Shown piece by piece: positions 2,344-55,668 of a stretch of 64,000 nucleotides of DNA. The notes below the pieces were generated by a model. It saw nothing but the letters and a program-made list of their open reading frames with translations. It did no database searches and was not told the DNA's origin. The number at the start of each line of letters is the position of its first letter. Position 1 is the stretch's first letter. The position numbers were made by a program, and so were the translations under genes. This DNA is from an uncultured Bdellovibrionales bacterium (lineage in GTDB: Bacteria; Patescibacteriota; Minisyncoccia; Moranbacterales; UBA1568). The stretch spans positions 2,621 to 66,620 of the forward strand of contig CAZCNN010000001.1 of assembly GCA_964500505.1 (NCBI GenBank), given 5' to 3'.

Positions 2344-2727
2344 ATGAAGAGTCGATACTGGCTTCGGGCAGGACTGGTGGGTATTGCGGTCTTAATCGCG
2401 TGGGCCGTCTATATCTCTTCGAAGCAACTGACACGTAATGAGCGCATCGAGAGTGAGGTAGAGATGCTGCGGATGGAGGCTGACAAGATTCGTCGTGAAA
2501 ACGAAACACTCCATGAAAAGATTAGCTATTTCTCCACAGCAGATTTTCAAGAACAAGAGGCCAAGGAGAAGCTCGGGATGAAGAAAGAGCACGAAGAAGT
2601 AGTCGTGATCAAGGAACGACCCGAAGAGATAGCGACTGCACCAGGCGTGGAGCGGAAACCGGCGAGAGTAACTGTCGAAACACCGCCGTATCGTCAATGG
2701 TTTGAACTTTTTTTTAGTGCACCCTAG
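2344..2727 (+). CDS. FtsB/DivIC-like septum formation initiator (single TM plus coiled coil)
   Basis: An N-terminal TM (LVGIAVLIAWAVYI) is followed by a heptad coiled coil. The C-terminal motif EAKEKLGMKKEHEEVVVI matches the FtsB/DivIC E..AR..LGM.K.GE.V pattern. The start is taken at the internal ATG, not the upstream TTG used by the ORF track. Confidence 0.55.
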   Translation: MKSRYWLRAGLVGIAVLIAWAVYISSKQLTRNERIESEVEMLRMEADKIRRENETLHEKISYFSTADFQEQEAKEKLGMKKEHEEVVVIKERPEEIATAPGVERKPARVTVETPPYRQWFELFFSAP

Positions 2728-2729
2728 GT

Positions 2730-3776
2730 ATGAAAACTCCTTTCCCCAAACTGCGTTGGTCGACCGCTCTCTACGGCGTGCTGGCTTTGGTGACTCTCCT
2801 ATTGGTAGTGAGCCTCATCATGGTGTATTTCATGCCACGCACATTTCCTCGTCTTGAGTCGCTCATCAATCGGAGTCCGTATCCAGTGGCTATCGTCGGA
2901 TACCGGGGTGCGATTACCTTTCGGGAGTTGTCATCCAACATGGAGTCCATCCGGCGATTTTATGAGAATCAAGATTTCTCCCAAGTCGGTCTCCGGGTGG
3001 ATTTTTCGACCGATGAAGGCAAGAAGCGTCTCAAGGTACGAGAAAAAGAAGTCTTAAACAAGATGATTGAGGATGAGTCGATCATGATACTCGCTAAGAA
3101 ACGGGGTATCTTTGTCAGTCCCGAGACGGCTCGTCAGGGAGTGGCTCGCAAGCTCGAGGAGTATGGCAATAGCCGGGAAGTCGCCGAGAGTCTCAAACGC
3201 CTCTATGGCTGGACGCTCAGTGATTTTGAACAGAAAGTAGTCCTCCCGAGCCTCTACGAAGAAAAGCTGTACGAGAGCTTTACCAAAGAAGTCGATATAG
3301 CATCAGCCGCCAAGAACAAAATAGAGGAGGCAGCCCTCGCGCTCCGAGAAGGTCGGGATTTTGACGAGACTGTTGAGCAGTACTCAGACGGACAGTCGAA
3401 AACCAAGGGTGGAGACCTCGGTTGGTTTGCCATCGAGGATCTCGCACCAGAGCTCCGGAGTGCTGTGGCGACGCAAAAGATAGGCGTCCCCGGGAGTGTC
3501 ATCGAGAGTAGTCTCGGGTTTCACATCGTTCTGGTAGAGGAACTCCGCGAGGAAAAAGGGGGGCGTCTCTATCGTATCAGTCAGATTTTTGCCCGCAAGA
3601 ATACTTTTGGGGATTGGCTCTCAGAGCAGATGAAGGGTCTTTCGATTATGGCTCTTGACCCACTCTATCGTTTTGACGCTGAGACGGCTCGAGTAGAATT
3701 CCGCGACCCCGCTTGGCAGGAGTTCGAGAAGTCCCTTCTCGAGAAGGCCGCTGGGGATGCATCTTTCTTCTTTTAG
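2730..3776 (+). CDS. Membrane-anchored parvulin-type peptidyl-prolyl isomerase (PrsA/SurA-like foldase)
   Basis: An N-terminal TM anchor is followed by a PpiC/rotamase core (GGDLGWFAIEDLAPEL...GFHIVLVEE). Confidence 0.6.
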   Translation: MKTPFPKLRWSTALYGVLALVTLLLVVSLIMVYFMPRTFPRLESLINRSPYPVAIVGYRGAITFRELSSNMESIRRFYENQDFSQVGLRVDFSTDEGKKRLKVREKEVLNKMIEDESIMILAKKRGIFVSPETARQGVARKLEEYGNSREVAESLKRLYGWTLSDFEQKVVLPSLYEEKLYESFTKEVDIASAAKNKIEEAALALREGRDFDETVEQYSDGQSKTKGGDLGWFAIEDLAPELRSAVATQKIGVPGSVIESSLGFHIVLVEELREEKGGRLYRISQIFARKNTFGDWLSEQMKGLSIMALDPLYRFDAETARVEFRDPAWQEFEKSLLEKAAGDASFFF

Positions 3777-8492: not shown

Positions 8493-9938
8493 CTATTCCT
8501 TTTCTTCATCAGGTCCCGACTCTGTCTCTAACTTGGAGCGGATGATGGGGGCGAAGTAGGCTAGCGTATCCGCGCTGGAAGATTGCCCGAGGAGACTCTT
8601 GGTATCAATGGGTTCAGTTTTGAGTGATTCTGGCGGTTTACCTGCGAGGAGATTGATCAGGTGTGAGAGAAAGGTTGTGGCATACTGGCCCTTGCCGAGC
8701 TCAAACGACAGGACTAGTCCCTGGTCGCAGACCCGGATGCCATGGAGAGTTGGGCGGTCACTGGTGGGGAGACTCCGTTCTCGAATCTGCAGGAATGGAA
8801 ACGGCTTGAGATTTTCGAATGGTGGCGGGTAGATACCATCACGACGTAGCTGTGCTTCATAGGGAGCCCAGCTTTTTTTGTTGAAACCAAGAAAGAGCGG
8901 GAGGCGATCAGGGAGTGGTTGGCCAGTGTGGGTAAGCAGGGAGAGAGCTTCGTTGTAGTATCGTGAGGCGAGCGCATAGACCCAGAGCACTATCTGGTCG
9001 CTGATTTGAGCGAGGGCACCACTATAGTCATCAGGGTGGGTTTGCAGGTGTCGAATCAGGCGGAGCTCATGACGGAAGATGATTGGAAAGGGTGCAATGA
9101 GTGATTCGATAGCGTCCCAGTGACCCCAGAGCTGGGCACATTCGGCGCGCAAATTTTTGAAGTAGGTGAGCTCCCGCGGGGCCTGGTAGGTGAGGGCGCC
9201 ATGGACAGCCTCTTCATACTCGCCACGGAGGATAGAGAGGCCCCAGGCGTAGTTGTGGAGGCGCGGCGTGCCGAAACGTTGGAGGTAGAAATAGTTCGCA
9301 AAGCCATGATCACGGATAGTGGCGAGATTCTCCGCAAAAGCATCTAGGGTATCCTTGCGAAAGAACATCTCATCAGTCCGGATGAGAAGCGTGAAACGAT
9401 TACCTCGGAGCCCACCGGTCGCGACGACACCATTGCCAGCGGAGACATCTTTGAGGAAAAAGTAGGGTGAAGAAAGGGACTTGAGTTTCTGAGCGGATAT
9501 TTTACGAAAAGAAAGACGCTGAGCAGTGAGGGCGTCGCGGTCTTTGATGCCAGCATAGCCGATGGCGGAGCGTTCGCACCCGAGCTGAGTCACTATATCG
9601 TCGATAGCCTCAATGGTTGAGACGCCACATTTGACCAGGGTAGCGTAGGTAGTGGGGGCGTAGGGGAGTGATGTCTCCTCGGTGAGGAGATTCTCCCGAG
9701 TCACGGTGTAGAGTTCTCCCTCGGGACCGACCTCTTCTACGATGAAGTCTCCTGGCCAGAGCTTGAGGTATCCCGTAGCAAACGACTGCTTGCCAGGGAT
9801 ATCGATGCCAAATTCACGGAGGAGAGAGCTATCCTCGACGTAGGTCCGTCGTTCAAAGAGCTCGGGGTGAGCCAGTGCTTCCTTGGCGAGTATCTCGTGC
9901 TCCTGGTTTTTGTTTTCCTGCCGGTCTGTTGATGGCAT
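8493..9938 (-). CDS. truD: tRNA pseudouridine(13) synthase TruD
   Basis: The GYAGIKDRDALTAQ motif (GxKD catalytic Asp region) and overall TruD/Pus7 architecture are present. The start is taken at MPSTD. Confidence 0.65.
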   Translation of the reverse strand: MPSTDRQENKNQEHEILAKEALAHPELFERRTYVEDSSLLREFGIDIPGKQSFATGYLKLWPGDFIVEEVGPEGELYTVTRENLLTEETSLPYAPTTYATLVKCGVSTIEAIDDIVTQLGCERSAIGYAGIKDRDALTAQRLSFRKISAQKLKSLSSPYFFLKDVSAGNGVVATGGLRGNRFTLLIRTDEMFFRKDTLDAFAENLATIRDHGFANYFYLQRFGTPRLHNYAWGLSILRGEYEEAVHGALTYQAPRELTYFKNLRAECAQLWGHWDAIESLIAPFPIIFRHELRLIRHLQTHPDDYSGALAQISDQIVLWVYALASRYYNEALSLLTHTGQPLPDRLPLFLGFNKKSWAPYEAQLRRDGIYPPPFENLKPFPFLQIRERSLPTSDRPTLHGIRVCDQGLVLSFELGKGQYATTFLSHLINLLAGKPPESLKTEPIDTKSLLGQSSSADTLAYFAPIIRSKLETESGPDEEKE

Positions 9939-10011
9939 GTACGTAGTGATATATTTGAATACTAGCAAAATTCTTCTTTTTTGACACGCATTTTATGATG
10001 CAGGCCATTCT

Positions 10012-10040
10012 TTGACCAAAAGGGGATTTTCGGCTATGCT
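10012..10040 (+). promoter_or_regulatory. Sigma70-like promoter TTGACC-17-TATGCT upstream of proS
   Basis: TTGACC lies at 10012-17 and TATGCT at 10035-40. The spacer contains the 15-nt motif AAAAGGGGATTTTCG. Confidence 0.45.
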
Positions 10041-10062
10041 GAAAGAAATTTAGGCTTATACT

Positions 10063-11301
10063 ATGAAACAATCACACCTGTTTACCAAGACGAAAAAGGA
10101 AGCGCCGAAGGATGAGGTGAGCCGGAATGCGGAGCTTCTTATCCGCGCTGGCTTTATCCACAAAGAAATGGCGGGCGTGTATTCGTTTCTTCCTTTGGGA
10201 CTCCGGACGCTCAATAAAGTGATGCAGGTAATTCGCGAGGAAATGGATGCAATTGGGGGACAAGAAGTTTCTCTGACAGCTTTGCAGGAGAAGTCCTTGT
10301 GGGAAAAGACGGATCGTTGGGATGATGAGAAAGTGGATGTTTGGTTCAAGACTGCTTTGAAGAACGGGACGGAAGTCGGTCTCGGGTGGTCTCATGAAGA
10401 GCCAATCACGCGGCTCATGCAGCAGCAAATTTCTTCATATCGCGATTTTCCGGTACTGGCGTATCAGTTCCAGACCAAGTTTCGCAACGAGACGCGGGCT
10501 AAGAGTGGTATCATGCGGACGCGTGAATTTATCATGAAGGATCTGTATTCGTTCGCCCGGACGCAAGCCGAACATGAGGAGGTGTACTCGTCCGTACGAG
10601 AAGCATACGTACGGGTGTTTGCCCGTGTTGGGTTGGGTCAGGTGACGTATCCAGCGTTTGCATCAGGTGGCGCGTTCAGTAAGTATTCTGAAGAATTTCA
10701 GACCGTGAGCGATGCCGGTGAAGACGTGATCTATGTCGATGAAGCAAGTGGTCAGGCATTGAACAAAGAAGTACTGAATGATGAGGTGATGGCTGATCTG
10801 GGATTACAAAAAGAGAATCTGGTGGCGAAGAAATCTATAGAAGTAGGGAATATTTTTAATCTGGGTACGAGGTTTTCAGATCCACTCGGTTTGACTTACA
10901 AAGATGAGGAAGGAAAGGCTGTGCCAGTAGTGATGGGCTGTTACGGCATTGGTCCGGCGCGCGTCATGGGCACCATCGCCGAGGTGCTTTCTGATGAGGC
11001 AGGACTCGTCTGGCCGGAGAGTGTGGCGCCATTTCGGGTGCACCTCCTCTCGCTCGGGGCCGATGAGAAAGCGAATGAGATCTATGGGGCTCTGACAGGG
11101 GCTGGTATCGAGGTCCTCTACGATGACCGAGATACTCCCGCAGGGGCCAAGTTCGCCGAGAGTGATCTCCTCGGACTCCCGTATCGTATCGTGATTGGCA
11201 AACGTTCACTTGAAAGTGGTAAGGCCGAAGTCAAGAAGCGCACTGACAAAGAAGCAACCGAAGTGGCGTTCGAAGAACTGGTCGCATTTTTCAAACCATA
11301 G
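10063..11301 (+). CDS. proS: Prolyl-tRNA synthetase (short form, class II)
   Basis: Class II aaRS motifs are present (RTREFIMKDLYSF). The N-terminal HLFTKTKKEAPKDEVSRNAELLIRAGFI matches the ProRS N-terminus. A C-terminal anticodon-binding domain is present. Confidence 0.75.
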   Translation: MKQSHLFTKTKKEAPKDEVSRNAELLIRAGFIHKEMAGVYSFLPLGLRTLNKVMQVIREEMDAIGGQEVSLTALQEKSLWEKTDRWDDEKVDVWFKTALKNGTEVGLGWSHEEPITRLMQQQISSYRDFPVLAYQFQTKFRNETRAKSGIMRTREFIMKDLYSFARTQAEHEEVYSSVREAYVRVFARVGLGQVTYPAFASGGAFSKYSEEFQTVSDAGEDVIYVDEASGQALNKEVLNDEVMADLGLQKENLVAKKSIEVGNIFNLGTRFSDPLGLTYKDEEGKAVPVVMGCYGIGPARVMGTIAEVLSDEAGLVWPESVAPFRVHLLSLGADEKANEIYGALTGAGIEVLYDDRDTPAGAKFAESDLLGLPYRIVIGKRSLESGKAEVKKRTDKEATEVAFEELVAFFKP

Positions 11302-13042: not shown

Positions 13043-14176
13043 ATGCGTGTAGCAGTTCAGGCATCAGACTTGGACCATCGTCGCATCGATGGGACGCGAG
13101 TGTACCTCCGGGAGCTCCTGAAGCGTTTCGGTGAGCTCTCACCAGAGACGGACTTTACTCTCTATCACAAGGGTGAATTCAACCCGGTTCTGGCCCCACC
13201 TGAAGCACCTAATTATACCCCACTGTCCCTACCATTTCCCTATGCTTGGATGCAGACTCGGTTTGCGCTTGAGCTCGCCCTCAATCGTCCGGACAAACTC
13301 TTTCTCCCGATTCAAGCCGCTCCGATTCTCATGCCAGGGTCCGTGGAAGTGACGGCCACGATTCATGACCTTGCCTTCAAGCGCTTTCCGGAGACGTTCC
13401 CAAAGCGAGATTTGTGGAAGCTCAACTTTATGCTCGAGACGGCTGTGAAGCGGGCCGACAAGCTGATAGCCGTGTCAGAGTCGACCAAACATGATCTCCT
13501 TGAATTCTTTCCGTCACTTCCCGAGTCACGAGTGCGGGTTATTCATCATGGCTTCGATGCCGAGTTTTTTGGCGCGCGTGTTGGAGATGAGGTGCTGACA
13601 CCCATACTAAAAAGCTATAACCTAAAAGCTAAAAGCTACGTATTGTACGTCGGCGCTCTCCAGCCACGGAAGAACCTGGTCCGGCTCATTGAGGCTTTTG
13701 GCGTGATGAAGAAGTCGGTACCGGAGGCGAAGCTCGTCCTCGCAGGGGAGGAGGCCTGGCTCGCTGAAACCATCGTCTCCGTCTGGGAACAGAGTCCGTA
13801 CCGTGACGACATCGTCCTCCCGGGACGGGTATCGTTTGAGACACTGCGCGCACTCTATCAGAAGGCGCGGATGTTCGCATTTCCGTCGCTTTACGAGGGT
13901 TTTGGGCTCCCGATACTCGAAGCCTTCGCTTCGGGTATTCCGGTCCTTACGGCCGAGAATTCGAGCTTGAGTGAGGTAGCGGGGGACGGCGCGCTTTACT
14001 GCCAGGCTACTGATACGGCCGGTATGGCAACTAAATTGGTACAGCTCTGGCAGGATGAGGTATTGAGGCAGGAGCTGGTCGCTCGTGGGACTGCTCGGCT
14101 GACAGGGTTTTCCTGGGACCGTTGTGCCCGCGAGACGTTGGATAATATCCTTGACAAAAATACAAATCTGTCCTAG
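13043..14176 (+). CDS. GT4-family (GT-B) glycosyltransferase
   Basis: The C-terminal EX7E-type motif FPSLYEGFGLPILEAFASGIPVL is present. Confidence 0.75.
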   Translation: MRVAVQASDLDHRRIDGTRVYLRELLKRFGELSPETDFTLYHKGEFNPVLAPPEAPNYTPLSLPFPYAWMQTRFALELALNRPDKLFLPIQAAPILMPGSVEVTATIHDLAFKRFPETFPKRDLWKLNFMLETAVKRADKLIAVSESTKHDLLEFFPSLPESRVRVIHHGFDAEFFGARVGDEVLTPILKSYNLKAKSYVLYVGALQPRKNLVRLIEAFGVMKKSVPEAKLVLAGEEAWLAETIVSVWEQSPYRDDIVLPGRVSFETLRALYQKARMFAFPSLYEGFGLPILEAFASGIPVLTAENSSLSEVAGDGALYCQATDTAGMATKLVQLWQDEVLRQELVARGTARLTGFSWDRCARETLDNILDKNTNLS

Positions 14177-20082: not shown

Positions 20083-21267
20083 ATGAATATTCTTGTTGTG
20101 GCGCCGACGCCGTTTTTTTCTGATCGGGGGACCCATATCCGTATCCTCGAAGAGGCGCTCGCCCTCGAAAAGCGTGGTCATGTGGTGACGATCGCCACCT
20201 ACCACATCGGCCAAAACTTGCCAGAGCATCTCGGATCACATATTGATGTCCGCCGTATCAGGCGACTCCTCTTTTGGTACAAGAAATTGGAAGCGGGCCC
20301 AGACTGGCAAAAGATCATCCTCGATCTCCTCCTTATCAAAAAGGTGTTCTTCCTGGCTCGGACCAAGCGCCCCGACATCATTCATGCGCATCTCCATGAG
20401 GGAGCGCTCATTGCCTGGATCGTGCAAAAGATGCTCTTCTGGCGCGGGATCAAGGTGGTAGCGGATTTCCATGGCAGTCTGACCAAGGAGATGGTGTCGC
20501 ACAAGTACCTCCATGCTTCTGGTCTCGAGCGCTTATTTCGCTTTGTGGAAGAGTGGATTGATACCCTGGGAGATGCCGCTGTCGCGAGTTCGTGGAATAA
20601 CGCGGAGGAGATTGCTCGGATTCGCGGAACCACAGTCGAGGTACTCCTCGATGGGACACGTCTCTCGATGTTTGAGGGTCTACCTGAGCGTTCTCAGATT
20701 CGAGCGGAGTATGGTGTCCCCGAGTCAGCCGTTGTCGTGACCTACACCGGGGCCTTTATCCGGAACAAAGGCATCAATTTCTTTCTCGAAGCCATGCCAC
20801 AAGTAGCCAAGGAATGTCCTACCGCTCATTTTGTCCTCGCTGGTTTCCCACTCGACCTCATCGAGCATGACATCCCCGAGGCGCTTCGGACACGTGTGAC
20901 TATCGTGAGTCCTTCGCCGTACTTTGATCTGCCTCGGATCCTCCGGATGAGTGACATCGGTGTCGACCCCAAAGATGAGGCGACGCGCGAAGCGAGTGGC
21001 AAGACGCTTCAGTATATGGGAGCGGGACTACCAGTCGCGTGCTTTGCGACGGGTAACAATCGTGAGTATCTTGGCGAGGGCGGTACGTATGCCGAGACCG
21101 TGACGGCGAGCGCCTTGGCCGAGGCTATCCTCGTCCTGGCCAATGACGTGTCACTGTGTGCCAAGAAGGGTGCCATCAACCGTATCCGAGCCGAGGATTT
21201 CAGTTGGGAGAAAAGCGCCGAGAAAGTAGAGGGGATGTATCAGTCACTTTTGAGACAATCATCATGA
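20083..21267 (+). CDS. GT4-family glycosyltransferase
   Basis: It has a GT-B architecture. The start is taken at MNILVVAPT. A 4-bp ATGA overlap joins it to the next gene. Confidence 0.7.
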   Translation: MNILVVAPTPFFSDRGTHIRILEEALALEKRGHVVTIATYHIGQNLPEHLGSHIDVRRIRRLLFWYKKLEAGPDWQKIILDLLLIKKVFFLARTKRPDIIHAHLHEGALIAWIVQKMLFWRGIKVVADFHGSLTKEMVSHKYLHASGLERLFRFVEEWIDTLGDAAVASSWNNAEEIARIRGTTVEVLLDGTRLSMFEGLPERSQIRAEYGVPESAVVVTYTGAFIRNKGINFFLEAMPQVAKECPTAHFVLAGFPLDLIEHDIPEALRTRVTIVSPSPYFDLPRILRMSDIGVDPKDEATREASGKTLQYMGAGLPVACFATGNNREYLGEGGTYAETVTASALAEAILVLANDVSLCAKKGAINRIRAEDFSWEKSAEKVEGMYQSLLRQSS

Positions 21268-22460
21268 ATCTTTGGCGGATCAAATTAGGCAAAGCCTGGA
21301 ATGTCCTCAAGCGGGACGGACTCTGGCGGGGTGGTATGCGGGTGCTTACGGCCTTTGGTCAGTTGTTTCGGCGCGTCCGGCCAGGTGATATCCTCTTTAT
21401 CTCGAATGGCGTCGGGGACAGCGCTCGCTATCGGACCGTGCATGTGGCTGAGGAGCTTGAGCAGGCTCACTTTCAGACGGCAGTGACGGTCCAGGACAAT
21501 CCATTTCTTTCGTCCTATGCCGACCAGTTTTCAGTCTTTGTGTTTCATCGCGTCCTCTACACTGATCAGATTGCATCCTTTGTGGCCAGGCTCAAAGCAC
21601 TCGGGAAGACCATTGTCTTTGAGACGGACGACCTCGTGTATGACCCCGAGTTTCTCCGGCACATGGATTACTACACCCAGATGAATCCATGGGAGAAGAA
21701 ACTTTATGAGCATGGTTTGGGAGGGGAGATACTCAGTGATCCGTATGTCGAGGTAGCAACGACGACGACTTCGTTTTTAGCGGACAAACTCCGTGAGCGC
21801 GGGAAGCAGGCATTTGTGGTGCGGAACAAACTCTCAAAGCAAGACCTCCTCTGGGCCGCCGATGCTTTGGCGAAGAAAGCTAACAGCTATAAGCTATCAG
21901 CCAATCATCCTCTCCGCATTGGGTATCTCTCTGGTACTCCGAGTCACAACAAAGATTTTGCCACGATTACCCAGGCGCTGGTATCAATTCTGGAGCGCTA
22001 TCCAGCTGTCCGGCTCGTGCTCGCCGGACCACTCGATACCGAGAGTGCCCTCCAGAGATTTGCTGACCGGATTGAACGGGTTCCTTTTGTGCCTCGGGGT
22101 GAACTCTTTGGGGTGATCGCGTCCCTTGATATCAACCTCGCCCCACTTGAAATGGGCAATCCATTTTGTGAATCCAAGTCGGAGCTCAAGTGGTTTGAAG
22201 CGGGTATTGTTGGCGTACCCACTGTGGCTACTGCCACCCAGACGTTTCGTGAGGCGATCACTGATGGTGTGGACGGGTATGTCGCGTCGACCGAGAGTGA
22301 ATGGCAGGAGAAATTGGCTCGACTCATCACTGATTCTGAGGCGCGACAGGCGATGGGCGCCCAGGCTCGACAAATCGTCCTTGCGCGTTATACTACTATT
22401 GGAGCAGGAAATACTGAGTACTATGATTACCTCAGGTCGAAAGTGGGTACTAAATTATGA
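21264..22460 (+). CDS. GT-B glycosyltransferase-like protein
   Basis: The C-terminal GT1/GT4 signature is present (DINLAPLEMGNPFCESKSELKWFEAGIVGVP). The start is taken at MNLWRIK. Confidence 0.65.
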   Translation: MNLWRIKLGKAWNVLKRDGLWRGGMRVLTAFGQLFRRVRPGDILFISNGVGDSARYRTVHVAEELEQAHFQTAVTVQDNPFLSSYADQFSVFVFHRVLYTDQIASFVARLKALGKTIVFETDDLVYDPEFLRHMDYYTQMNPWEKKLYEHGLGGEILSDPYVEVATTTTSFLADKLRERGKQAFVVRNKLSKQDLLWAADALAKKANSYKLSANHPLRIGYLSGTPSHNKDFATITQALVSILERYPAVRLVLAGPLDTESALQRFADRIERVPFVPRGELFGVIASLDINLAPLEMGNPFCESKSELKWFEAGIVGVPTVATATQTFREAITDGVDGYVASTESEWQEKLARLITDSEARQAMGAQARQIVLARYTTIGAGNTEYYDYLRSKVGTKL

Positions 22461-22903
22461 ATTTTGAATTTCCAATTTTGATTGAAATTTTTATTTCAAA
22501 TGAATGAGTGGAAATGAAAAGGTTTTCGATCTTGAGGATAGGACGGCTTTGTTCGGTGAAAACGTTATTAGGTTTTCCAAAACACTGAGACAGGACACTA
22601 TAACAAAGCCACTTATTTCACAAATTGTTCGTTCTGCGACCAGTGTTGGAGCGAATTACATGGAAGCGAATGGCGCTAGTTCAAAAAAGGATTTCAAAAA
22701 TAAGATTCATATTTGCAAAAAAGAAGTACAGGAAACGAAACACTGGTTGAGGATGATTTCTGTTGCTTCTACTGAGCATGCCGATGAGGCACGAAAGTTA
22801 TGGAAAGAAGCACAGGAACTGACACTGATCTTTGGTAAAATCATCTCTACCTTGAAGATTGAATAATTCAGTATTGATTCGAAATTCAAAATTACTCATT
22901 CAT
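22460..22903. repeat. Inverted repeats bracketing the four-helix-bundle gene (13-bp pair and 10-bp pair)
   Basis: AATTTTGAATTTC at 22460-22472 pairs with GAAATTCAAAATT at 22881-22893 (perfect). ATGAATGAGT at 22500-22509 pairs with ACTCATTCAT at 22894-22903 (perfect). Confidence 0.7.
22504..22866 (+). CDS. Four-helix-bundle protein (TIGR02436-like, '23S rRNA intervening-sequence protein' family)
   Basis: The characteristic ~120-aa sequence is present (RSATSVGANYMEANGASSKKDFKNKIHICKKEVQETKHWL). It is bracketed by inverted repeats. Confidence 0.7.
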   Translation: MSGNEKVFDLEDRTALFGENVIRFSKTLRQDTITKPLISQIVRSATSVGANYMEANGASSKKDFKNKIHICKKEVQETKHWLRMISVASTEHADEARKLWKEAQELTLIFGKIISTLKIE

Positions 22904-22919
22904 AATTAAATTCACAGCT

Positions 22920-23876
22920 ATGAAAGTTCTGATAACAGGGGGTGCAGGATTTATAGGCTCAGCAACCGCGCGAGCACTGATGGAGCGAGGCGATACGCCC
23001 ATACTCATCGATAACTTCAACGATTACTATGATCCTCGGATAAAGGAGGACCGCATCAAGAAGTTTCTCAAAGCGTACAAGGGGAGCTTTAAGTTGTATC
23101 GAGGCGATATCCGCGATGCGAAATTTCTCGAAAAAGTATTCAAGAAAGAGAAGCCAGAAAAGGTAGTCCATCTCGCGGCTATGGCTGGAGTAAGGAACAG
23201 TCTCAAGAATCCAGCTCTCTATGTCGATGTGAACGTCATGGGGACGACACTTCTCCTCGATCTCTCGGTCAAGTACGGAATCAAGAATTTCCTCTACGCT
23301 TCTTCCTCGTCAGTCTACGGCAACAACAAGAAACTGCCGTTTTCGGAAACTGATCCGGTAGATACCCCCATTTCGCCGTATGCCGCTACCAAGAAGGCGA
23401 CCGAGCTCCTGGCTCATGTCTACAGTCATATCCACAGTCTCCCGACCATAGGACTCCGGTTCTTCACCGTCTACGGCCCATGGGGACGACCAGATATGGC
23501 GCTCTTTGATTTTACTCGGGCGATCTTTGCCGATGAAACTATCAAGGTCTACAATCGTGGCAACATGACCCGGAACTTCACCTATATCGATGACATCGTC
23601 TCGGGTATCCTCACCTGTCTCGACGCTGACTTACCATGTGCCCTTATGAATATCGGGGGAGACAAAGAAGAGAAGCTCACCCGGTTTATCGAGGTGATTG
23701 AAAAGAATGTGGGGAAGACCGCCAAGAAAAAACTGATGCCCATGCAACCAGGCGATGTCCCATCGACCGTGGCCGATATCAAGCGCCTACGCAAATTGGG
23801 CTGGAAGCCGACCACTCGTATCGATCAAGGGATCAAGAACTTTGTCGATTGGTACCGGGAGTACTTCGGGGTGTAG
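22920..23876 (+). CDS. NAD-dependent sugar-nucleotide epimerase (UDP-glucuronate 4-epimerase-like SDR)
   Basis: The Rossmann motif GGAGFIGS, a YxxxK region and YGPWGRPDMALFDF typical of UDP-GlcA/GalA 4-epimerases are present. Confidence 0.75.
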   Translation: MKVLITGGAGFIGSATARALMERGDTPILIDNFNDYYDPRIKEDRIKKFLKAYKGSFKLYRGDIRDAKFLEKVFKKEKPEKVVHLAAMAGVRNSLKNPALYVDVNVMGTTLLLDLSVKYGIKNFLYASSSSVYGNNKKLPFSETDPVDTPISPYAATKKATELLAHVYSHIHSLPTIGLRFFTVYGPWGRPDMALFDFTRAIFADETIKVYNRGNMTRNFTYIDDIVSGILTCLDADLPCALMNIGGDKEEKLTRFIEVIEKNVGKTAKKKLMPMQPGDVPSTVADIKRLRKLGWKPTTRIDQGIKNFVDWYREYFGV

Positions 23877-24482: not shown

Positions 24483-24874
24483 TTCCAGAACAGATTGGAT
24501 TATCGCGCGGCCAAGCCCTGAAAGGGGTCTGGAGCGAGGAAAGTCCGGACACTGAGCCACAGCGTATGCCAGTGGCAAGGGTAATGGGTAACCCCCATAC
24601 GCCGTGAGGCGCGAGGTGCGAGCAGAGACGCCATGCGACGAAAGAAGCATGGGCGCTTTTGAGCAATCGAAGGCGTAGCCACGAGGAGCGAAAGCTCTTT
24701 TCGTGGGTGAAACGGCTAAATCCTTACCTCGGTGCAAGGTCGTGCCTAGATCCTCTTGGAGCTCAAGAGGGGACGGGAGAACTGCAAAGATTCGGCTGGT
24801 AACAGCCGGACAAGATAAATGGTAATCTCTGCTTTCGGGCAGAACAGAATCCGGCTTATAGATCTGTTTTGGAA
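24483..24874 (+). ncRNA. rnpB: RNase P RNA (bacterial type A)
   Basis: The universally conserved P4 strands are present (GAGGAAAGUCCGG and ACAGAAUCCGGCUUA). Also present are GGUAACCCCCA, GGCUGGUAACAGCCGG and GAUAAAUGG segments. A P1 helix is formed by 24483-24495 with 24862-24874. Ends are approximate to about 10 nt. Confidence 0.8.
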
Positions 24875-26379: not shown

Positions 26380-26437
26380 GCTGGTGAAATTCTTGCCGAG
26401 TGCTATACTGTGGGTGTAAGTCCGTAAACCAAATTCT

Positions 26438-26785
26438 ATGATACTTCTCCGCTTGATGGTGAGTGCGCTCGCCTTTTTGTCGCTCTCGTATGTTATTCCC
26501 GGTATTTCAGTCAAAGGGTTTGGGACGGCCCTCATTCTGGCCCTGCTTTGGGGTATTGTTGGGATTACGATCAAGCCCATTCTCCTCCTTCTCACGCTTC
26601 CGTTCAATCTCCTGACACTCGGACTCTTTACTTTTATTATCAATGGTTTTCTCCTCTGGATGCTTGGTGGTCTCATCAAGGGCTTTGAGGTCCATGGTTT
26701 TTGGGTCGCTGTCTTGGGCGCCCTCTTCCTCTCGGTGGTCGGCTCGCTCACGCAATGGGCGCTCAATCATAGTGATAAAGACTAA
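26438..26785 (+). CDS. DUF360-like (phage-holin superfamily IV-like) small membrane protein
   Basis: It has four TM helices and a GISVKGF...LTLP pattern reminiscent of YvlD/DUF360. Confidence 0.45.
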   Translation: MILLRLMVSALAFLSLSYVIPGISVKGFGTALILALLWGIVGITIKPILLLLTLPFNLLTLGLFTFIINGFLLWMLGGLIKGFEVHGFWVAVLGALFLSVVGSLTQWALNHSDKD

Positions 26786-26803
26786 CTCGAGATAGTAGGT
26801 ACT

Positions 26804-52951: not shown

Positions 52952-53932
52952 ATGCGTATGAATGAAAATACTCCTTATCTTTCGGTTGTTGTTCCTCTGT
53001 ACAACGAGGAAGGGAACGTAACGGAACTGCATCGTAAGATTCGTGAGGCGGTCCAAAAAATTGGTCGGCCCTTTGAAATTATCTTTGTGGATGATGGTTC
53101 CAAGGACGGGACGCTCGCAGAGGCCAAGAGACTCTCCCCACTCAAGCTCATTGCGTTCCGCAAAAACTTTGGTCAGACGGCCGCCTTTGATGCGGGCTTC
53201 AAGGAGGCCAAAGGTGATATAATCATCACGCTTGATGGCGATCTCCAGAATGACCCAGCGGACATCCCACTCCTTCTCGAAAAAATGGCTGAAGGGTACG
53301 ACGTTGTTTCCGGATGGCGTCATCAGCGTCAGGATCCATGGAGCAAAAAGATTCCTTCTCGCATCGCGAATGCGCTCCGCAAGGTGCTTATCCAAGACAA
53401 TATCCATGATTCTGGATGTAGTCTCAAGGCTTACAAGCGAGAGTGTTTCAAAGACGTCGATCTCTTCGGTGAGATGCATCGCTTTATCCCTGCCATTCTC
53501 GAGCTTGAGGGGTACAAGGTCGGTGAGGTCAAGGTATCCCATCACCCGCGTATCCACGGTGTGACCAAGTACAACTGGAAGCGTGGTTTCAAGGGCTTTG
53601 TTGACATGGTGTCTATCTGGTTTTGGCGCAAGTACTCGCATCGACCGCTCCACCTCTTTGGAGCAACAGGTGTTATCCTCACAGCTCTTGGCGTAGCTAT
53701 CCTCATCTGGATGCTCGTCGAAAAGCTCTACTTTGGGGCGTCGCTCTCGGAGCGTATTTGGCCACTCATCGGTATCTTCTTTACCTTGGTCGGAGTACAG
53801 TTGTTTATTTCCGGGCTCCTTGCTGACATCTCAGTCCGCAACTACTACCAGGTGCGACATCGGATGAACTACAACATAAGACAGATAACAGTTAACAATG
53901 AGCAGTCAACGAAGAGCGGAAACGTGGAGTAG
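52952..53932 (+). CDS. Polyprenol-phosphate glycosyltransferase (GT2, GtrB/ArnC-like) with C-terminal TM helices
   Basis: VVVPLYNEEGN, FVDDGSKDGT and DGDLQNDP are followed by two TMs. The last ~15 codons run into the left inverted repeat of the downstream insertion. Confidence 0.75.
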   Translation: MRMNENTPYLSVVVPLYNEEGNVTELHRKIREAVQKIGRPFEIIFVDDGSKDGTLAEAKRLSPLKLIAFRKNFGQTAAFDAGFKEAKGDIIITLDGDLQNDPADIPLLLEKMAEGYDVVSGWRHQRQDPWSKKIPSRIANALRKVLIQDNIHDSGCSLKAYKRECFKDVDLFGEMHRFIPAILELEGYKVGEVKVSHHPRIHGVTKYNWKRGFKGFVDMVSIWFWRKYSHRPLHLFGATGVILTALGVAILIWMLVEKLYFGASLSERIWPLIGIFFTLVGVQLFISGLLADISVRNYYQVRHRMNYNIRQITVNNEQSTKSGNVE

Positions 53933-54341
53933 ATAACAAAGAATAGTAAAGTTCGATGGAGAAGGACATCCTAAAAACGAAGATGGACAAGCTTGCAAAA
54001 GGCGTATATATTGTTACGAAGACTTTTCCCAGAGAAGAAATATACGGACTGACTTCACAAATTCAGAGGGCTTCGTTGTCGATAATCTTGAACTATATAG
54101 AGGGATTTGCAAGACTTGGCGATAAAGAACTGAAAAACTTTTTGCAAATTTCGTATGGTTCCCTCAAAGAAACACAGTATCTCCTTTTCTTTTGTGCTCG
54201 CGAAAAATATATACCAAAGTCGGATTATGAAAAACTCATGAAGCTATCTGATGAAATAGGGGCAATGCTTTGGAAGAGGATTGGAACTGTAAAAGAAAAA
54301 ATTTCACGAGGCTGATGAGGAGGTGCTGATTGTTAACTGTT
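53888..54341. repeat. 12-bp inverted repeat bracketing the second four-helix-bundle gene
   Basis: AACAGTTAACAA at 53888-53899 pairs with TTGTTAACTGTT at 54330-54341. The GTTAAC core is self-palindromic. Confidence 0.55.
53956..54315 (+). CDS. Four-helix-bundle protein (TIGR02436-like), second copy
   Basis: It has the same family pattern as 22504-22866 (ASLSIILNYIEGFARLGDKELKNFLQISYGSLKETQYLL). Confidence 0.7.
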   Translation: MEKDILKTKMDKLAKGVYIVTKTFPREEIYGLTSQIQRASLSIILNYIEGFARLGDKELKNFLQISYGSLKETQYLLFFCAREKYIPKSDYEKLMKLSDEIGAMLWKRIGTVKEKISRG

Positions 54342-54357
54342 AATTGTTGATTGTCTT

Positions 54358-55668
54358 ATGAAAGTCACTTTCTTGGGGACGGGATATGTAGGATTGGTTT
54401 CGGGGGCTTGTTTGGCCGAGATTGGTCATGAGGTTATCTGTGCTGATATCGACAAGAAGAAGATTGCCATGCTCAAGAAGGGAATTATTCCTATTTACGA
54501 AATTGGCCTCGAAGAAATTGTGGATCGAAATGTCAAAGAGGGTAGACTTACCTTTACTACTGATCTCAAGAAAGCGATCCAAGAGTCCGAAGTAGTCTTT
54601 ATGGCGGTAGGGACCCCAGAAGACAAGGTGACTGGTCAAGCCGACCTCCAGTATGTGTTTGCCGTGGCGGAGACTTTTGGTAAGCATTTGAATGGCTATA
54701 AGCTCTTTGTCGACAAATCAACGGTGCCAGTAGGAACCGCTGAAAGAGTAGAAGAAATCATCAAAAAAGCCTCAAAGGGCAAGTATCCATTTGAGGTCGT
54801 TTCTAACCCAGAATTTCTCCGTGAAGGAGCTGCGGTTAAGGATTTTCAGAACCCGGATCGAGTAGTGCTCGGAGTGAAGTCCGACAAGGCACGGAAGATG
54901 ATGGAACAGATCTACCGCCCGATTGCGAGAAATGGTCGCCCAATTCTCTTCACGGATGTGCGGAGTGCCGAGATTATCAAGTACGCTGCCAACGCTTTTT
55001 TGGCCATGAAAATTACGTTTATCAATGAGGTAGCCAACTTCTGTGATGTGGCTGGGGGCAATGTCAAAGAAGTAGCCAAGGGTCTCGGTTATGACAATCG
55101 TATCGGAGAGCGCTTCCTCTACGCTGGTATCGGCTATGGTGGATCCTGCTTCCCGAAGGACGTGAAGGCGTTTATTGAGACGGGGCGTGAATACAACTCT
55201 CACTTTCATATCATCGAAACCGTGAGTGAAGTGAACCAGTCGCAGCGCATTAAGCCTTTCATAAAATTGAAGGAAGTATTTGGTGACAAACTCAAGGGGA
55301 AGACCATCGCGGTCTGGGGATTGGCCTTTAAGCCACGTACTGATGATACTCGAGAGGCACCTGGCATTGAAAATATCAAGCTCTTTCTCGAGGAGGGCTG
55401 CAAAGTGAGGGCTTTTGATCCGGTGGCGATGCCGAATACCAAGAAGCAACTACAGCACAAGAACCTGACCTATACCAAAAAAGCTCTCGATGCTCTAAAG
55501 GGTGCTGATGTCCTTGTTATTGCGACAGAGTGGGATGAATTCCGCGTCGTGAGCTATGCTGATTTGAAGAAACAGATGAAGGGAACAATTATCTATGACG
55601 GTCGCAATGTCCTTGAGCGCTCTGAGGCTGAAGCCCACGGTTTTACCTATTACGGTATCGGGGTGTAA
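54358..55668 (+). CDS. ugd: UDP-glucose 6-dehydrogenase family (NDP-sugar dehydrogenase)
   Basis: The FLGTGYVGLVSGACLAE Rossmann motif is present. The catalytic Cys region GGSCFPKD and a C-terminal UDP-binding domain are also present. Confidence 0.85.
   Translation: MKVTFLGTGYVGLVSGACLAEIGHEVICADIDKKKIAMLKKGIIPIYEIGLEEIVDRNVKEGRLTFTTDLKKAIQESEVVFMAVGTPEDKVTGQADLQYVFAVAETFGKHLNGYKLFVDKSTVPVGTAERVEEIIKKASKGKYPFEVVSNPEFLREGAAVKDFQNPDRVVLGVKSDKARKMMEQIYRPIARNGRPILFTDVRSAEIIKYAANAFLAMKITFINEVANFCDVAGGNVKEVAKGLGYDNRIGERFLYAGIGYGGSCFPKDVKAFIETGREYNSHFHIIETVSEVNQSQRIKPFIKLKEVFGDKLKGKTIAVWGLAFKPRTDDTREAPGIENIKLFLEEGCKVRAFDPVAMPNTKKQLQHKNLTYTKKALDALKGADVLVIATEWDEFRVVSYADLKKQMKGTIIYDGRNVLERSEAEAHGFTYYGIGV

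Follow-up and report, generated by a model that had tools for sequence, protein, structure and literature searches.

The 64,000-nucleotide stretch of contig CAZCNN010000001.1 from an uncultured member of the Patescibacteria (the window) contains, between a glycosyltransferase (GT) gene and a sugar epimerase gene of a glycan cluster, a small gene for a four-helix-bundle (4HB) protein of the PF05635/TIGR02436 family, which is also annotated as S23p or 23S rRNA intervening sequence (IVS) protein. The gene is part of an AT-rich module of about 0.45-0.5 kb that spans from the upstream stop codon to the downstream start codon, and the two arms of this cassette are inverted arrays of tandem heptamers of the AATTTTG type, a feature missed in the preliminary description of this DNA. 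Cassettes of this type are widespread in Patescibacteria (candidate phyla radiation, CPR), and the window carries two of them. With moderate confidence, and by analogy with the rRNA IVSs, we interpret the locus as an IVS-like cassette in an mRNA operon, which would be looped out of the transcript and would be a substrate of RNase III.

The gene order first proposed, with a 120-aa TIGR02436-like gene between the GT and epimerase genes and all three on one strand, was borne out; the gap measures 459 nt. The 13-bp perfect inverted repeat (IR) reported around the gene is exact as well, with 22460-22472 (AATTTTGAATTTC) being the reverse complement of 22881-22893. A second IR of 10 bp is present to the letter, 22500-22509 (ATGAATGAGT) being exactly reverse-complementary to 22894-22903, but it is marginal (P ~0.02) and does not belong to the flanking stem: the orthologous cassettes L185, L186 and L011 lack it, and since the two repeats follow each other in the un-nested order A, B ... 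A', B' they cannot be stacked into a single stem. The 10-bp repeat is probably fortuitous. The true stem of this first cassette (cassette 1) is longer and imperfect and pairs 22453-22491 with 22862-22900, i.e. 39 nt that are 72% complementary, while an outer helix of 8 bp (22453-22460 with 22900-22907) is shifted by one heptamer, exactly 7 nt. Tandem repeat analysis with TRF gave a period of 7, the unit AATTTTG and 4.1 copies at 22453-22481. Another period-7 array of the window, at 13610-13638, lies inside a coding region and was discarded as unrelated.

Shuffling of the cassette 1 flanks, which have a GC content of about 20%, produced a 13-bp perfect IR in 0.1% of cases, and the duplex energy of these flanks (-27.6 kcal/mol) was beaten by none of 1000 shuffles. 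In minimum free energy folds the flanking arms close both window cassettes (z -3.7 and -3.2; 0 of 100 shuffles equal). Out of 2540 pairs of the same spacing taken over the 64 kb, IRs of at least 11 bp were detected only at 22426/22451 and at 53876, the latter at the second 4HB gene.

For comparison we used a sample of 80 genome loci of 4HB homologues from diverse Patescibacteria. The 4HB protein of cassette 1 belongs to a very large CPR group, with 65-90% identity across many candidate phyla. The flanking IR score exceeded the 99th percentile of an offset-window null in 94% of the 80 homologous loci, so the repeats accompany the gene in other genomes too; duplex z-scores were mostly between -3 and -11, seven loci had a perfect flanking duplex of at least 20 bp, the arms of L049 and L077 being perfect over 28-30 bp, and the GC content of the 4HB gene was about 10 points under that of its surroundings. 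The 5' arm is built across loci as (AATTTTG / AATTTCG / AATTTCC, or the C-variant AATTTTC)n followed by AATCAAT, and in most homologous loci the 3' arm reads ATTGATTC followed by (RAAATTC)n. The same heptamer units thus recur from locus to locus, which answers the concern, raised together with the first observation, that the arms might be chance matches in AT-rich DNA and missing elsewhere. Autocorrelation at lag 7 reached 0.48/0.49 in the flanks (controls: 0.26) and was echoed at lags 14 and 21. Of the 74 strict period-7 arrays in about 1 Mb of fetched DNA, 42 are no more than 120 nt away from a 4HB gene. The type of the arm, G or C variant, was concordant between the 5' and the 3' side in 59 loci and discordant in four (Fisher p 2e-11), which is covariation at the level of the array. 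The arm type tracks protein identity weakly.

Some loci deserve a separate description. Loci L016 and L017, from one Campbellbacteria genome, carry two 95%-identical 4HB copies which have 166 nt of upstream sequence in common and no flanking IR; they are among the few exceptions to the rule of the flanking IR. Locus L013 has at 2518-3005 a typical 5' arm, (AATTTCG)3 AATTTTG AATCAATTTTGAATG, followed by about 430 nt without an open reading frame (ORF) but with GC-rich local hairpins, perhaps the remains of a cassette, or else another cargo that does not code for protein. In L014 a heptamer hairpin-like array at 250-345 lies within a 419-aa ORF; it may have been inserted in frame, or the ORF call may have joined two genes.

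A phmmer scan of all ORFs of the window returned a second, divergent member of the 4HB family at 53956-54315. Its product matches PF05635 with E 3e-29 (101.8 bits) and remains just below the cut-off of the bAvd-like family PF22296 (39.4 bits vs 40). This cassette 2 has the layout of cassette 1 with different heptamers (AACAGTT type): the arms are 34 nt, 76% complementary, with a 14-bp perfect core, a perfect IR that none of 1000 shuffles attained, and at the very end of the 3' arm stands the ATG of the downstream UDP-glucose dehydrogenase gene. Relatives with as little as 67% identity retain the syntenic order GT2, 4HB, UDP-glucose dehydrogenase. In these orthologues the heptamer units differ (AACAGTT, CAGCAAT, CATGAAR) while the arms are complementary within each locus, and the 3' arm likewise ends in the downstream ATG. 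The position of copy 2 is even more stable than that of cassette 1.

Table 1. Coordinates of the two 4HB cassettes and of the genes next to them (positions in the window).
Feature	Position	Strand	Details
GT4-family glycosyltransferase gene	21264..22460	+	398 aa; ORF list, Glycos_transf_1 in identical contigs, NCBIfam GT4
5' arm of cassette 1	22453..22491	+	AATTATG AATTTTG AATTTCC AATTTTG ATTGAAA; contains the 13-bp core and the outer 8-bp segment
Small local hairpin directly 5' of the 4HB start codon	22482..22499	+	TTGAAAT-TTTT-ATTTCAA; sequence reading
4HB gene of cassette 1, PF05635/TIGR02436 (S23p / 23S rRNA IVS protein)	22504..22866	+	120 aa
3' arm of cassette 1	22862..22907	+	ATTGATTC GAAATTC AAAATTA CTCATTC ATAATTA; 13-bp core 22881-22893, 8-bp segment 22900-22907
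NAD-dependent sugar epimerase/dehydratase gene	22920..23876	+	318 aa
GT2 glycosyltransferase gene upstream of cassette 2	52952..53932	+	final ~55 nt run through the 5' arm
5' arm of cassette 2	53875..53917	+	AAGACAG ATAACAG TTAACAA TGAGCAG TCAACGA; IR detection, TRF period 14
4HB gene of cassette 2	53956..54315	+	119 aa; canonical PF05635 type
3' arm of cassette 2	54324..54360	+	CTGATTG TTAACTG TTAATTG TTGATTG TCTTATG; TRF period 7, 3.7 copies
UDP-glucose 6-dehydrogenase gene downstream of cassette 2	54358..55668	+	

At cassette 1 the TGA stop codon of the GT4 gene (22458-22460) is located at the base of the stem and the ATG of the epimerase gene 13 nt past it. The insert has a GC content of 35-40% versus 52-57% in the adjoining genes. 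The small hairpin in front of the 4HB start codon keeps its stem in the orthologous cassettes L185 and L186, with a variable loop. No terminator and no promoter above chance level was detected in either window cassette.

The position within operons is general in the CPR sample: the upstream neighbour shares the orientation of the 4HB gene in 70 of 76 loci, as does the downstream neighbour in 69 of 78 (about 90%), and the gaps to the neighbours, some 40-70 nt, are taken up by the arms. The neighbouring genes are diverse and include T2SS-F/pilin genes, glycan enzymes, Wzt transporters, ATP-synthase subunits and peptidase M50; there is no specific association with glycan genes. Of the 80 relatives, none is located in an rRNA gene, a location that was ruled out by motif scans and Rfam. 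Rfam found no rRNA in the 64-kb window, where both cassettes lie between protein-coding genes; conserved 16S/23S motifs gave scattered single matches only, in 6 of 90 loci, and an Rfam search of the 20 most suspicious loci yielded no rRNA, with three tRNAs as the only hits. The proposal that the arrangement of the rRNA IVSs, in which a flanking stem has an ORF of the S23p family in its loop, is found here within an mRNA operon is supported, having withstood both of the refuting conditions put forward with it, and can be extended to other genomes. PF05635 ORFs have been noted in a few rRNA insertions of CPR (PMC11270868) and inside cas operons (PMC3936711). In the open-access literature we found no description of flanking heptamer IRs at PF05635 genes outside rRNA.

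Orthologues of the GT-epimerase pair were collected by a metagenome scan with the epimerase, which gave only relatives of at most 75% identity, and by tblastn. Empty sites are accordingly known from orthologues with 47-64% (GT) and 70-75% (epimerase) identity, not from sister strains. Three states of this junction exist among the orthologues: empty, occupied by an ORF-less heptamer hairpin, and occupied by a full cassette. In L091, L095 and L100 the site is empty and the GT and epimerase genes overlap (ATGA), while other orthologues have short spacers. Only the window, L185, L186 and L011 have the full cassette placed between the GT and the epimerase gene. Identities of the 4HB, GT and epimerase proteins to those of the window are 94, 78 and 93% for L185, 87, 67 and 97% for L186 (the epimerase over 34 aa only) and 87, 58 and 72% for L011. 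In L033 and L093 the cassette follows the epimerase gene and is not between GT and epimerase; the GT-epimerase spacer of L033 (1880-1990) holds an ORF-less hairpin, (AATTTCG)n ... (AAAAATT)n, ending at the epimerase ATG. ORF-less heptamer hairpins of other units occupy the same junction in L105, L109, L116 and L107. Beside L033, ORF-less hairpins made of cassette-arm units were also seen in the intercistronic spacers of L051 (2245-2360) and L014 (2074-2192). Such ORF-less hairpins may be remnants of cassettes or landing pads.

The start of the DNA homology between the window and L011 is near window position 22452, 52 nt in front of the ATG of the 4HB gene. The arms of the orthologous cassettes differ by whole heptamers, the window having one AATTTTG more than L185 and L186. 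Across the orthologous cassettes the proportion of synonymous differences (pS) is 0.71-0.82, which is saturated and equal to that of the adjacent epimerase, and from this we conclude that the insert is ancient and was vertically co-inherited. The proportion of non-synonymous differences (pN) of the 4HB gene, 0.03-0.10, is below that of the epimerase; set against the saturated pS this shows strong constraint, and the 4HB protein is functional. The strain variants L001-L010 carry identical cassettes, which together with the saturated synonymous sites rules out recent mobility. Of the suggestion that the locus is a mobile IVS-like cassette, the insertion itself is supported by the orthologues with an empty site, a hairpin or a cassette at another junction, but at this position the insertion is ancient and has not moved recently. 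The sequence ATGA/TATGAA, which occurs at both junctions of cassette 1 and once in the empty sites, is suggestive of a target-site duplication, though it is also needed for the stop and start codons alone, and the Nostoc plasmids described below lend such a duplication no support.

The protein itself is a clear member of its family (TIGR02436: E 1.2e-22, 80.2 bits, cut-off 24; PF05635: E 1.6e-16, 60.8 bits, cut-off 33.8). The AlphaFold2 monomer model of the 120-aa protein is a four-helix bundle with pLDDT 92.4. The best Foldseek matches were 2RLD (BT_0352; TM 0.73-0.85) and 2GSC (Xcc0516; TM 0.76-0.84), followed by Avd (8UB7, 4DWL), and a profile search also matched 2RLD with E 1.3e-15. The structures 2RLD and 2GSC have five chains each, and Xcc0516 has been described as a homopentameric toroid (PMC4990558). 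The motif of the family is GxxRxxxSxxxNxxE (PMC3936711), of which RxxxSxxxNxxE is present, with R43, S47, N51 and E54 invariant or nearly so in an alignment of 31 sequences. PF05635 is the family of Avd (PMC10053308), the protein which in 8UB7 is part of the reverse-transcriptase ribonucleoprotein of a diversity-generating retroelement (DGR).

Outside the CPR, a tblastn search of copy 2 against plasmids identified cyanobacterial homologues, and inverted heptamer arrays bracket six of the eight cyanobacterial plasmid copies examined. The units are GGGAGTA/TCCCTAC, TAGGGTG/CTACACC, CAGGAGT, AAGGGAA, GGGAAAA and TGTCACC. On the related Nostoc plasmids pNPUN02 and pNsp_c two different cassettes, with the units CAGGAGT and GGGAAAA, are found in one conserved operon (L189 1430-1850 vs L192 1400-1905); they are placed exactly between stop codon and ATG at two different junctions, and where the other plasmid has its cassette, each has an empty junction with a 3-nt spacer.

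Two further cyanobacterial plasmid loci are worth recording. In Nostoc edaphicum pNe_5 (L188, 1350-1860) the 4HB gene lies between two ribonucleotide-reductase subunit genes on the opposite strand, with very strong arms, (GGGAGTA)8 / (TCCCTAC)5, and on a Calothrix plasmid (L187) it is antisense to its neighbours and arms were not detected. Outside the CPR, co-orientation therefore has exceptions.

An experimentally characterised counterpart of the window cassettes is the IVS in helix 45 of the Coxiella burnetii 23S rRNA, which contains an S23p ORF and a 28-bp stem of terminal IRs that is cut by RNase III in vitro; the GACAGAT heptamer stands in it twice or three times in tandem, depending on the strain, the 5' cut is at the first repeat, and its S23p ORF is decaying and appears to be unexpressed (PMC4990558). 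The window cassettes share with it the PF05635 ORF in the loop of a stem, the terminal IRs, the co-orientation with the host transcript, a size of about 430-450 nt and tandem heptamers of variable copy number in the 5' arm. The Coxiella unit GACAGAT itself recurs in the 5' arm of cassette 2 (53880-53886), and also in L171. ORF-less versions exist here as they do for the ORF-containing 23S IVSs of Coxiella, Leptospira and Brucella. In distinction to the rRNA IVSs, the host transcript is a protein-coding operon and not a 23S or 16S rRNA, the ORF is under strong purifying selection where that of Coxiella is decaying and apparently unexpressed, and RNase III cleavage, shown for Coxiella, is inferred for the window cassettes.

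Intergenic tandem heptamers are also known in their own right, as STRR and GGGGAYT in cyanobacteria, GGGAATC in Xanthomonas and TAACTGA in Beggiatoaceae (PMC4692102, PMC4679880); Xanthomonas GGGAATC forms 70-75 convergent pairs per genome. Like the cassette arms, these arrays consist of lineage-specific 7-nt units, are intergenic, often end at start codons, vary in copy number among close relatives and frequently form inverted pairs capable of hairpins. They were published without a link to PF05635, whereas here they bracket a 4HB ORF in CPR and on cyanobacterial plasmids.

According to the IVS-type interpretation, the glycan operon would be transcribed through the cassette and the arms would anneal to a long AU-rich stem with the 4HB cistron looped out, so that the stop codon of the GT gene and the start codon of the epimerase gene come to lie at the base of the stem. 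The stem would be a substrate for RNase III, by analogy with the rRNA IVSs of Coxiella, Leptospira and Salmonella; cleavage would release the 4HB mRNA and separate the upstream from the downstream message. The insertion would be tolerated in the operon for the same reason for which an IVS is tolerated in 23S rRNA, and its history would be that of an old insertion at the GT-epimerase junction, inherited vertically since then, with the number of heptamers drifting by slippage. RNase III cleaves any double-stranded RNA of about 20 bp or more. Cleavage is plausible because of the seven loci with perfect duplexes of at least that length.

Several observations weigh against this interpretation. The stem of cassette 1 is modest, with 13 perfect base pairs plus 8 bp, a 7-nt bulge and AU-rich throughout, and L185 and L186, its orthologues, do not keep the exact 13-bp match. 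An RNase III stem gives no reason for the universal 7-nt period. Mismatches of the G·U type on the sense strand (105) were not in excess of those of the A·C type (96; p 0.57), and the duplex energies of sense and antisense strand did not differ (-30.6 vs -30.0 kcal/mol, p 0.32), so that the arms behave as strand-symmetric DNA repeats. Arms of subfamily 1 are nearly interchangeable between loci (non-cognate 35.0 vs cognate 40.6), as would also be expected of the conserved terminal repeats of a mobile element. In cyanobacteria, some copies run antisense to the operon around them. Within the 64-kb window, to which the search was limited, no RNase III ORF was detected; a weak match to an RNase III motif, ERFEFLGL, was rejected, being inside a 705-aa ORF and read on the opposite strand. 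Given the strand-symmetric mismatches, the equal duplex energies, the shared arms and the 7-nt period, readings at the level of DNA and of protein binding keep some probability.

In the first of these the cassette would be a DNA element whose arms, as terminal repeats or as hairpin (cruciform) sites, serve in its insertion, excision or recombination, either through an enzyme acting in trans or through homology with intergenic heptamer hairpins already in place; template-switch homogenisation of quasi-palindromes is a further DNA-level possibility, and any RNA stem would be a by-product. We regard this as unlikely. It would account for the strand symmetry, for the arm sequence common to the whole of subfamily 1, for the presence/absence and position polymorphism at orthologous operons, for the solitary hairpins of cassette units as possible landing pads or footprints, and for a GC content some 10 points under that of the host. 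Nevertheless, no transposase or recombinase was found in or beside the cassettes, and no clear target-site duplication is visible in the clean Nostoc pairs of filled and empty sites. Near-identical copies in different contexts were not found either: the best DNA identity between loci outside synteny is about 65-80%, and the closest intragenomic pair has 95%. The insertions are ancient, with synonymous sites saturated to the same degree as in the neighbours, and the unit sequence varies freely between lineages, unlike the ends of transposons recognised by proteins. Relatives of subfamily 1 were absent from the viral contigs of IMG/VR, on which ground a phage vector was discarded.

MITEs, the miniature transposable elements with inverted repeats, and other small non-autonomous transposons are likewise short, intergenic, ended by IRs and polymorphic for presence, but the cassettes have a conserved ORF that is not a transposase and arms of tandem heptamers with variable sequence, and they are ancient insertions with no clear target-site duplication or multiple near-identical copies. 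Integron cassettes resemble them as promoterless, co-oriented units with a single ORF and an imperfect palindrome; however, attC is found only 3' of the ORF and the cassettes are arrayed beside an integrase, while the 4HB repeats flank the ORF on both sides. The 4HB cassettes are solitary in ordinary operons, no integrase is present, and they do not qualify as integron cassettes.

A second alternative, which seems quite improbable to us, is a protein-operator module. Here the heptamers would be putative binding sites, in RNA or DNA, for the 4HB protein as a toroid, probably a pentamer, one unit per subunit, and would serve for autoregulation of the cassette and/or for control of the stability or translation of the flanking cistrons. 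A universal 7-nt period with a free unit sequence fits a structural ruler, and there are typically about 4-6 units per arm, to be compared with the five-chain homologues 2RLD and 2GSC and the toroid of Xcc0516 (PMC4990558). The Avd homologue is part of a ribonucleoprotein (8UB7), purifying selection on the 4HB protein is very strong, and intergenic heptamer arrays abound in phyla which are rich in PF05635 (PMC4679880; PMC4692102). On the other hand, the arm type follows protein identity weakly, ORF-less arrays occur far from any 4HB gene, the 64-kb window offers no other heptamer arrays as targets in trans, and the S23p of Coxiella appears unexpressed (PMC4990558).

It is very unlikely, in our view, that the stem acts uncleaved, as an insulator which juxtaposes stop and start codon and so restores a coupling lost by the insertion, or as a 3' stabiliser of the upstream message like the repetitive extragenic palindromic (REP) sequences. 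The ATGA stop/start overlaps of the empty sites do imply translational coupling, the GT stop is in the base of the stem with the epimerase ATG 13 nt beyond, the 3' arm of copy 2 and of its orthologues ends in the downstream ATG, and the Nostoc arms abut stop codon and ATG exactly. Against this, an AU-rich stem around a translated loop of 370 nt makes a poor stable structure, no G·U bias is seen, and orthologues differ in where the arm lies with respect to the stop codon. REP sequences and bacterial interspersed mosaic elements (BIMEs) are also intercistronic stem-loops within operons, but REP hairpins are short and carry no ORF.

The remaining two explanations can be dismissed. That the genes are accessory (Avd) genes of a DGR is suggested by the family, by the Avd-like fold and by the bAvd-like score of copy 2 (39.4 vs 40 bits), but the genes lying within 2.5-6 kb in identical or related contigs include no reported reverse-transcriptase family, no motif of a DGR reverse transcriptase is present in the window, and the syntenic place is between sugar-metabolism genes. 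The 4HB gene shares the homologous fold and family with Avd, yet stands alone between metabolic genes, with no reverse transcriptase, template or variable repeat nearby, and for both loci we consider this explanation effectively refuted. Chance complementarity in AT-rich, low-complexity spacer DNA, for which the GC-poor flanks and the marginal 10-bp repeat might speak, is effectively excluded by the shuffle and window-wide empirical tests, the recurrence in 94% of the 80 loci and the concordance of arm types.

Some features of the surrounding DNA were noted in passing. Between the epimerase gene and the gene of a sugar-phosphate transferase (Bac_transf) of the glycan cluster, on the same strand, lies a class A RNase P RNA (24487-24874, +), barely above the gathering score of Rfam (106.7 vs 100 bits); the length of this region differs among strain-level contigs (L002 and L005 vs L001 and L003). 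After the Bac_transf gene one strain-level contig, L001, has a DUF6922 + AbiEii pair resembling a type IV toxin-antitoxin system (9878-10737), where the window (26400-26800) and other contigs have an ORF of the Phage_holin_4_2 family; AbiEii genes are also close to the copy-2 orthologues L171 and L175. The window from about 27000 to 55000 has a GC content of 35-46% in a background of 50-55% and many genes of glycosyltransferase type, and looks like a compositionally foreign glycan island with cassette 2 at its right-hand edge.

What appears to be new in this work is that PF05635 genes of at least CPR, cyanobacteria and a gammaproteobacterial IVS sit inside inverted heptamer arrays; this layout is the rule for the 4HB family in several bacterial phyla. 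One architecture, a 4HB ORF in a stem of inverted heptamers, thereby ties together three puzzles which were kept apart for about 30 years: the purpose of the S23p ORF in rRNA intervening sequences, the thousands of orphan "four helix bundle protein" genes dispersed over unrelated operons, among them cas, glycan, pilus and ATP-synthase operons, and the role of the tandem heptamers that abound between the genes of cyanobacteria, Xanthomonas and sulfur bacteria. A far-reaching idea, which we put forward as distinctly improbable, is that PF05635 proteins and the intergenic heptamer hairpins (STRR, GGGAATC, TAACTGA and the CPR arrays) form one system spanning phyla, with the rRNA IVSs as a special case. 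Equally speculative are its two corollaries: that a toroidal pentamer might clasp the 7-nt-periodic stem in the manner of Avd in the DGR ribonucleoprotein, and, with the same low expectation on our part, that the pentamer might govern the processing, stability or translation of neighbouring cistrons, or the propagation of the cassette through an RNA intermediate with enzymes borrowed from host retroelements.

For annotation, an IR together with periodicity at lag 7 delimits the cassette and allows ORF-less remnants to be recognised. If the arms are indeed RNase III sites, the cassettes would be "intervening sequences of mRNA", by which the polycistronic transcripts of organisms with very small genomes would be cut at defined places.

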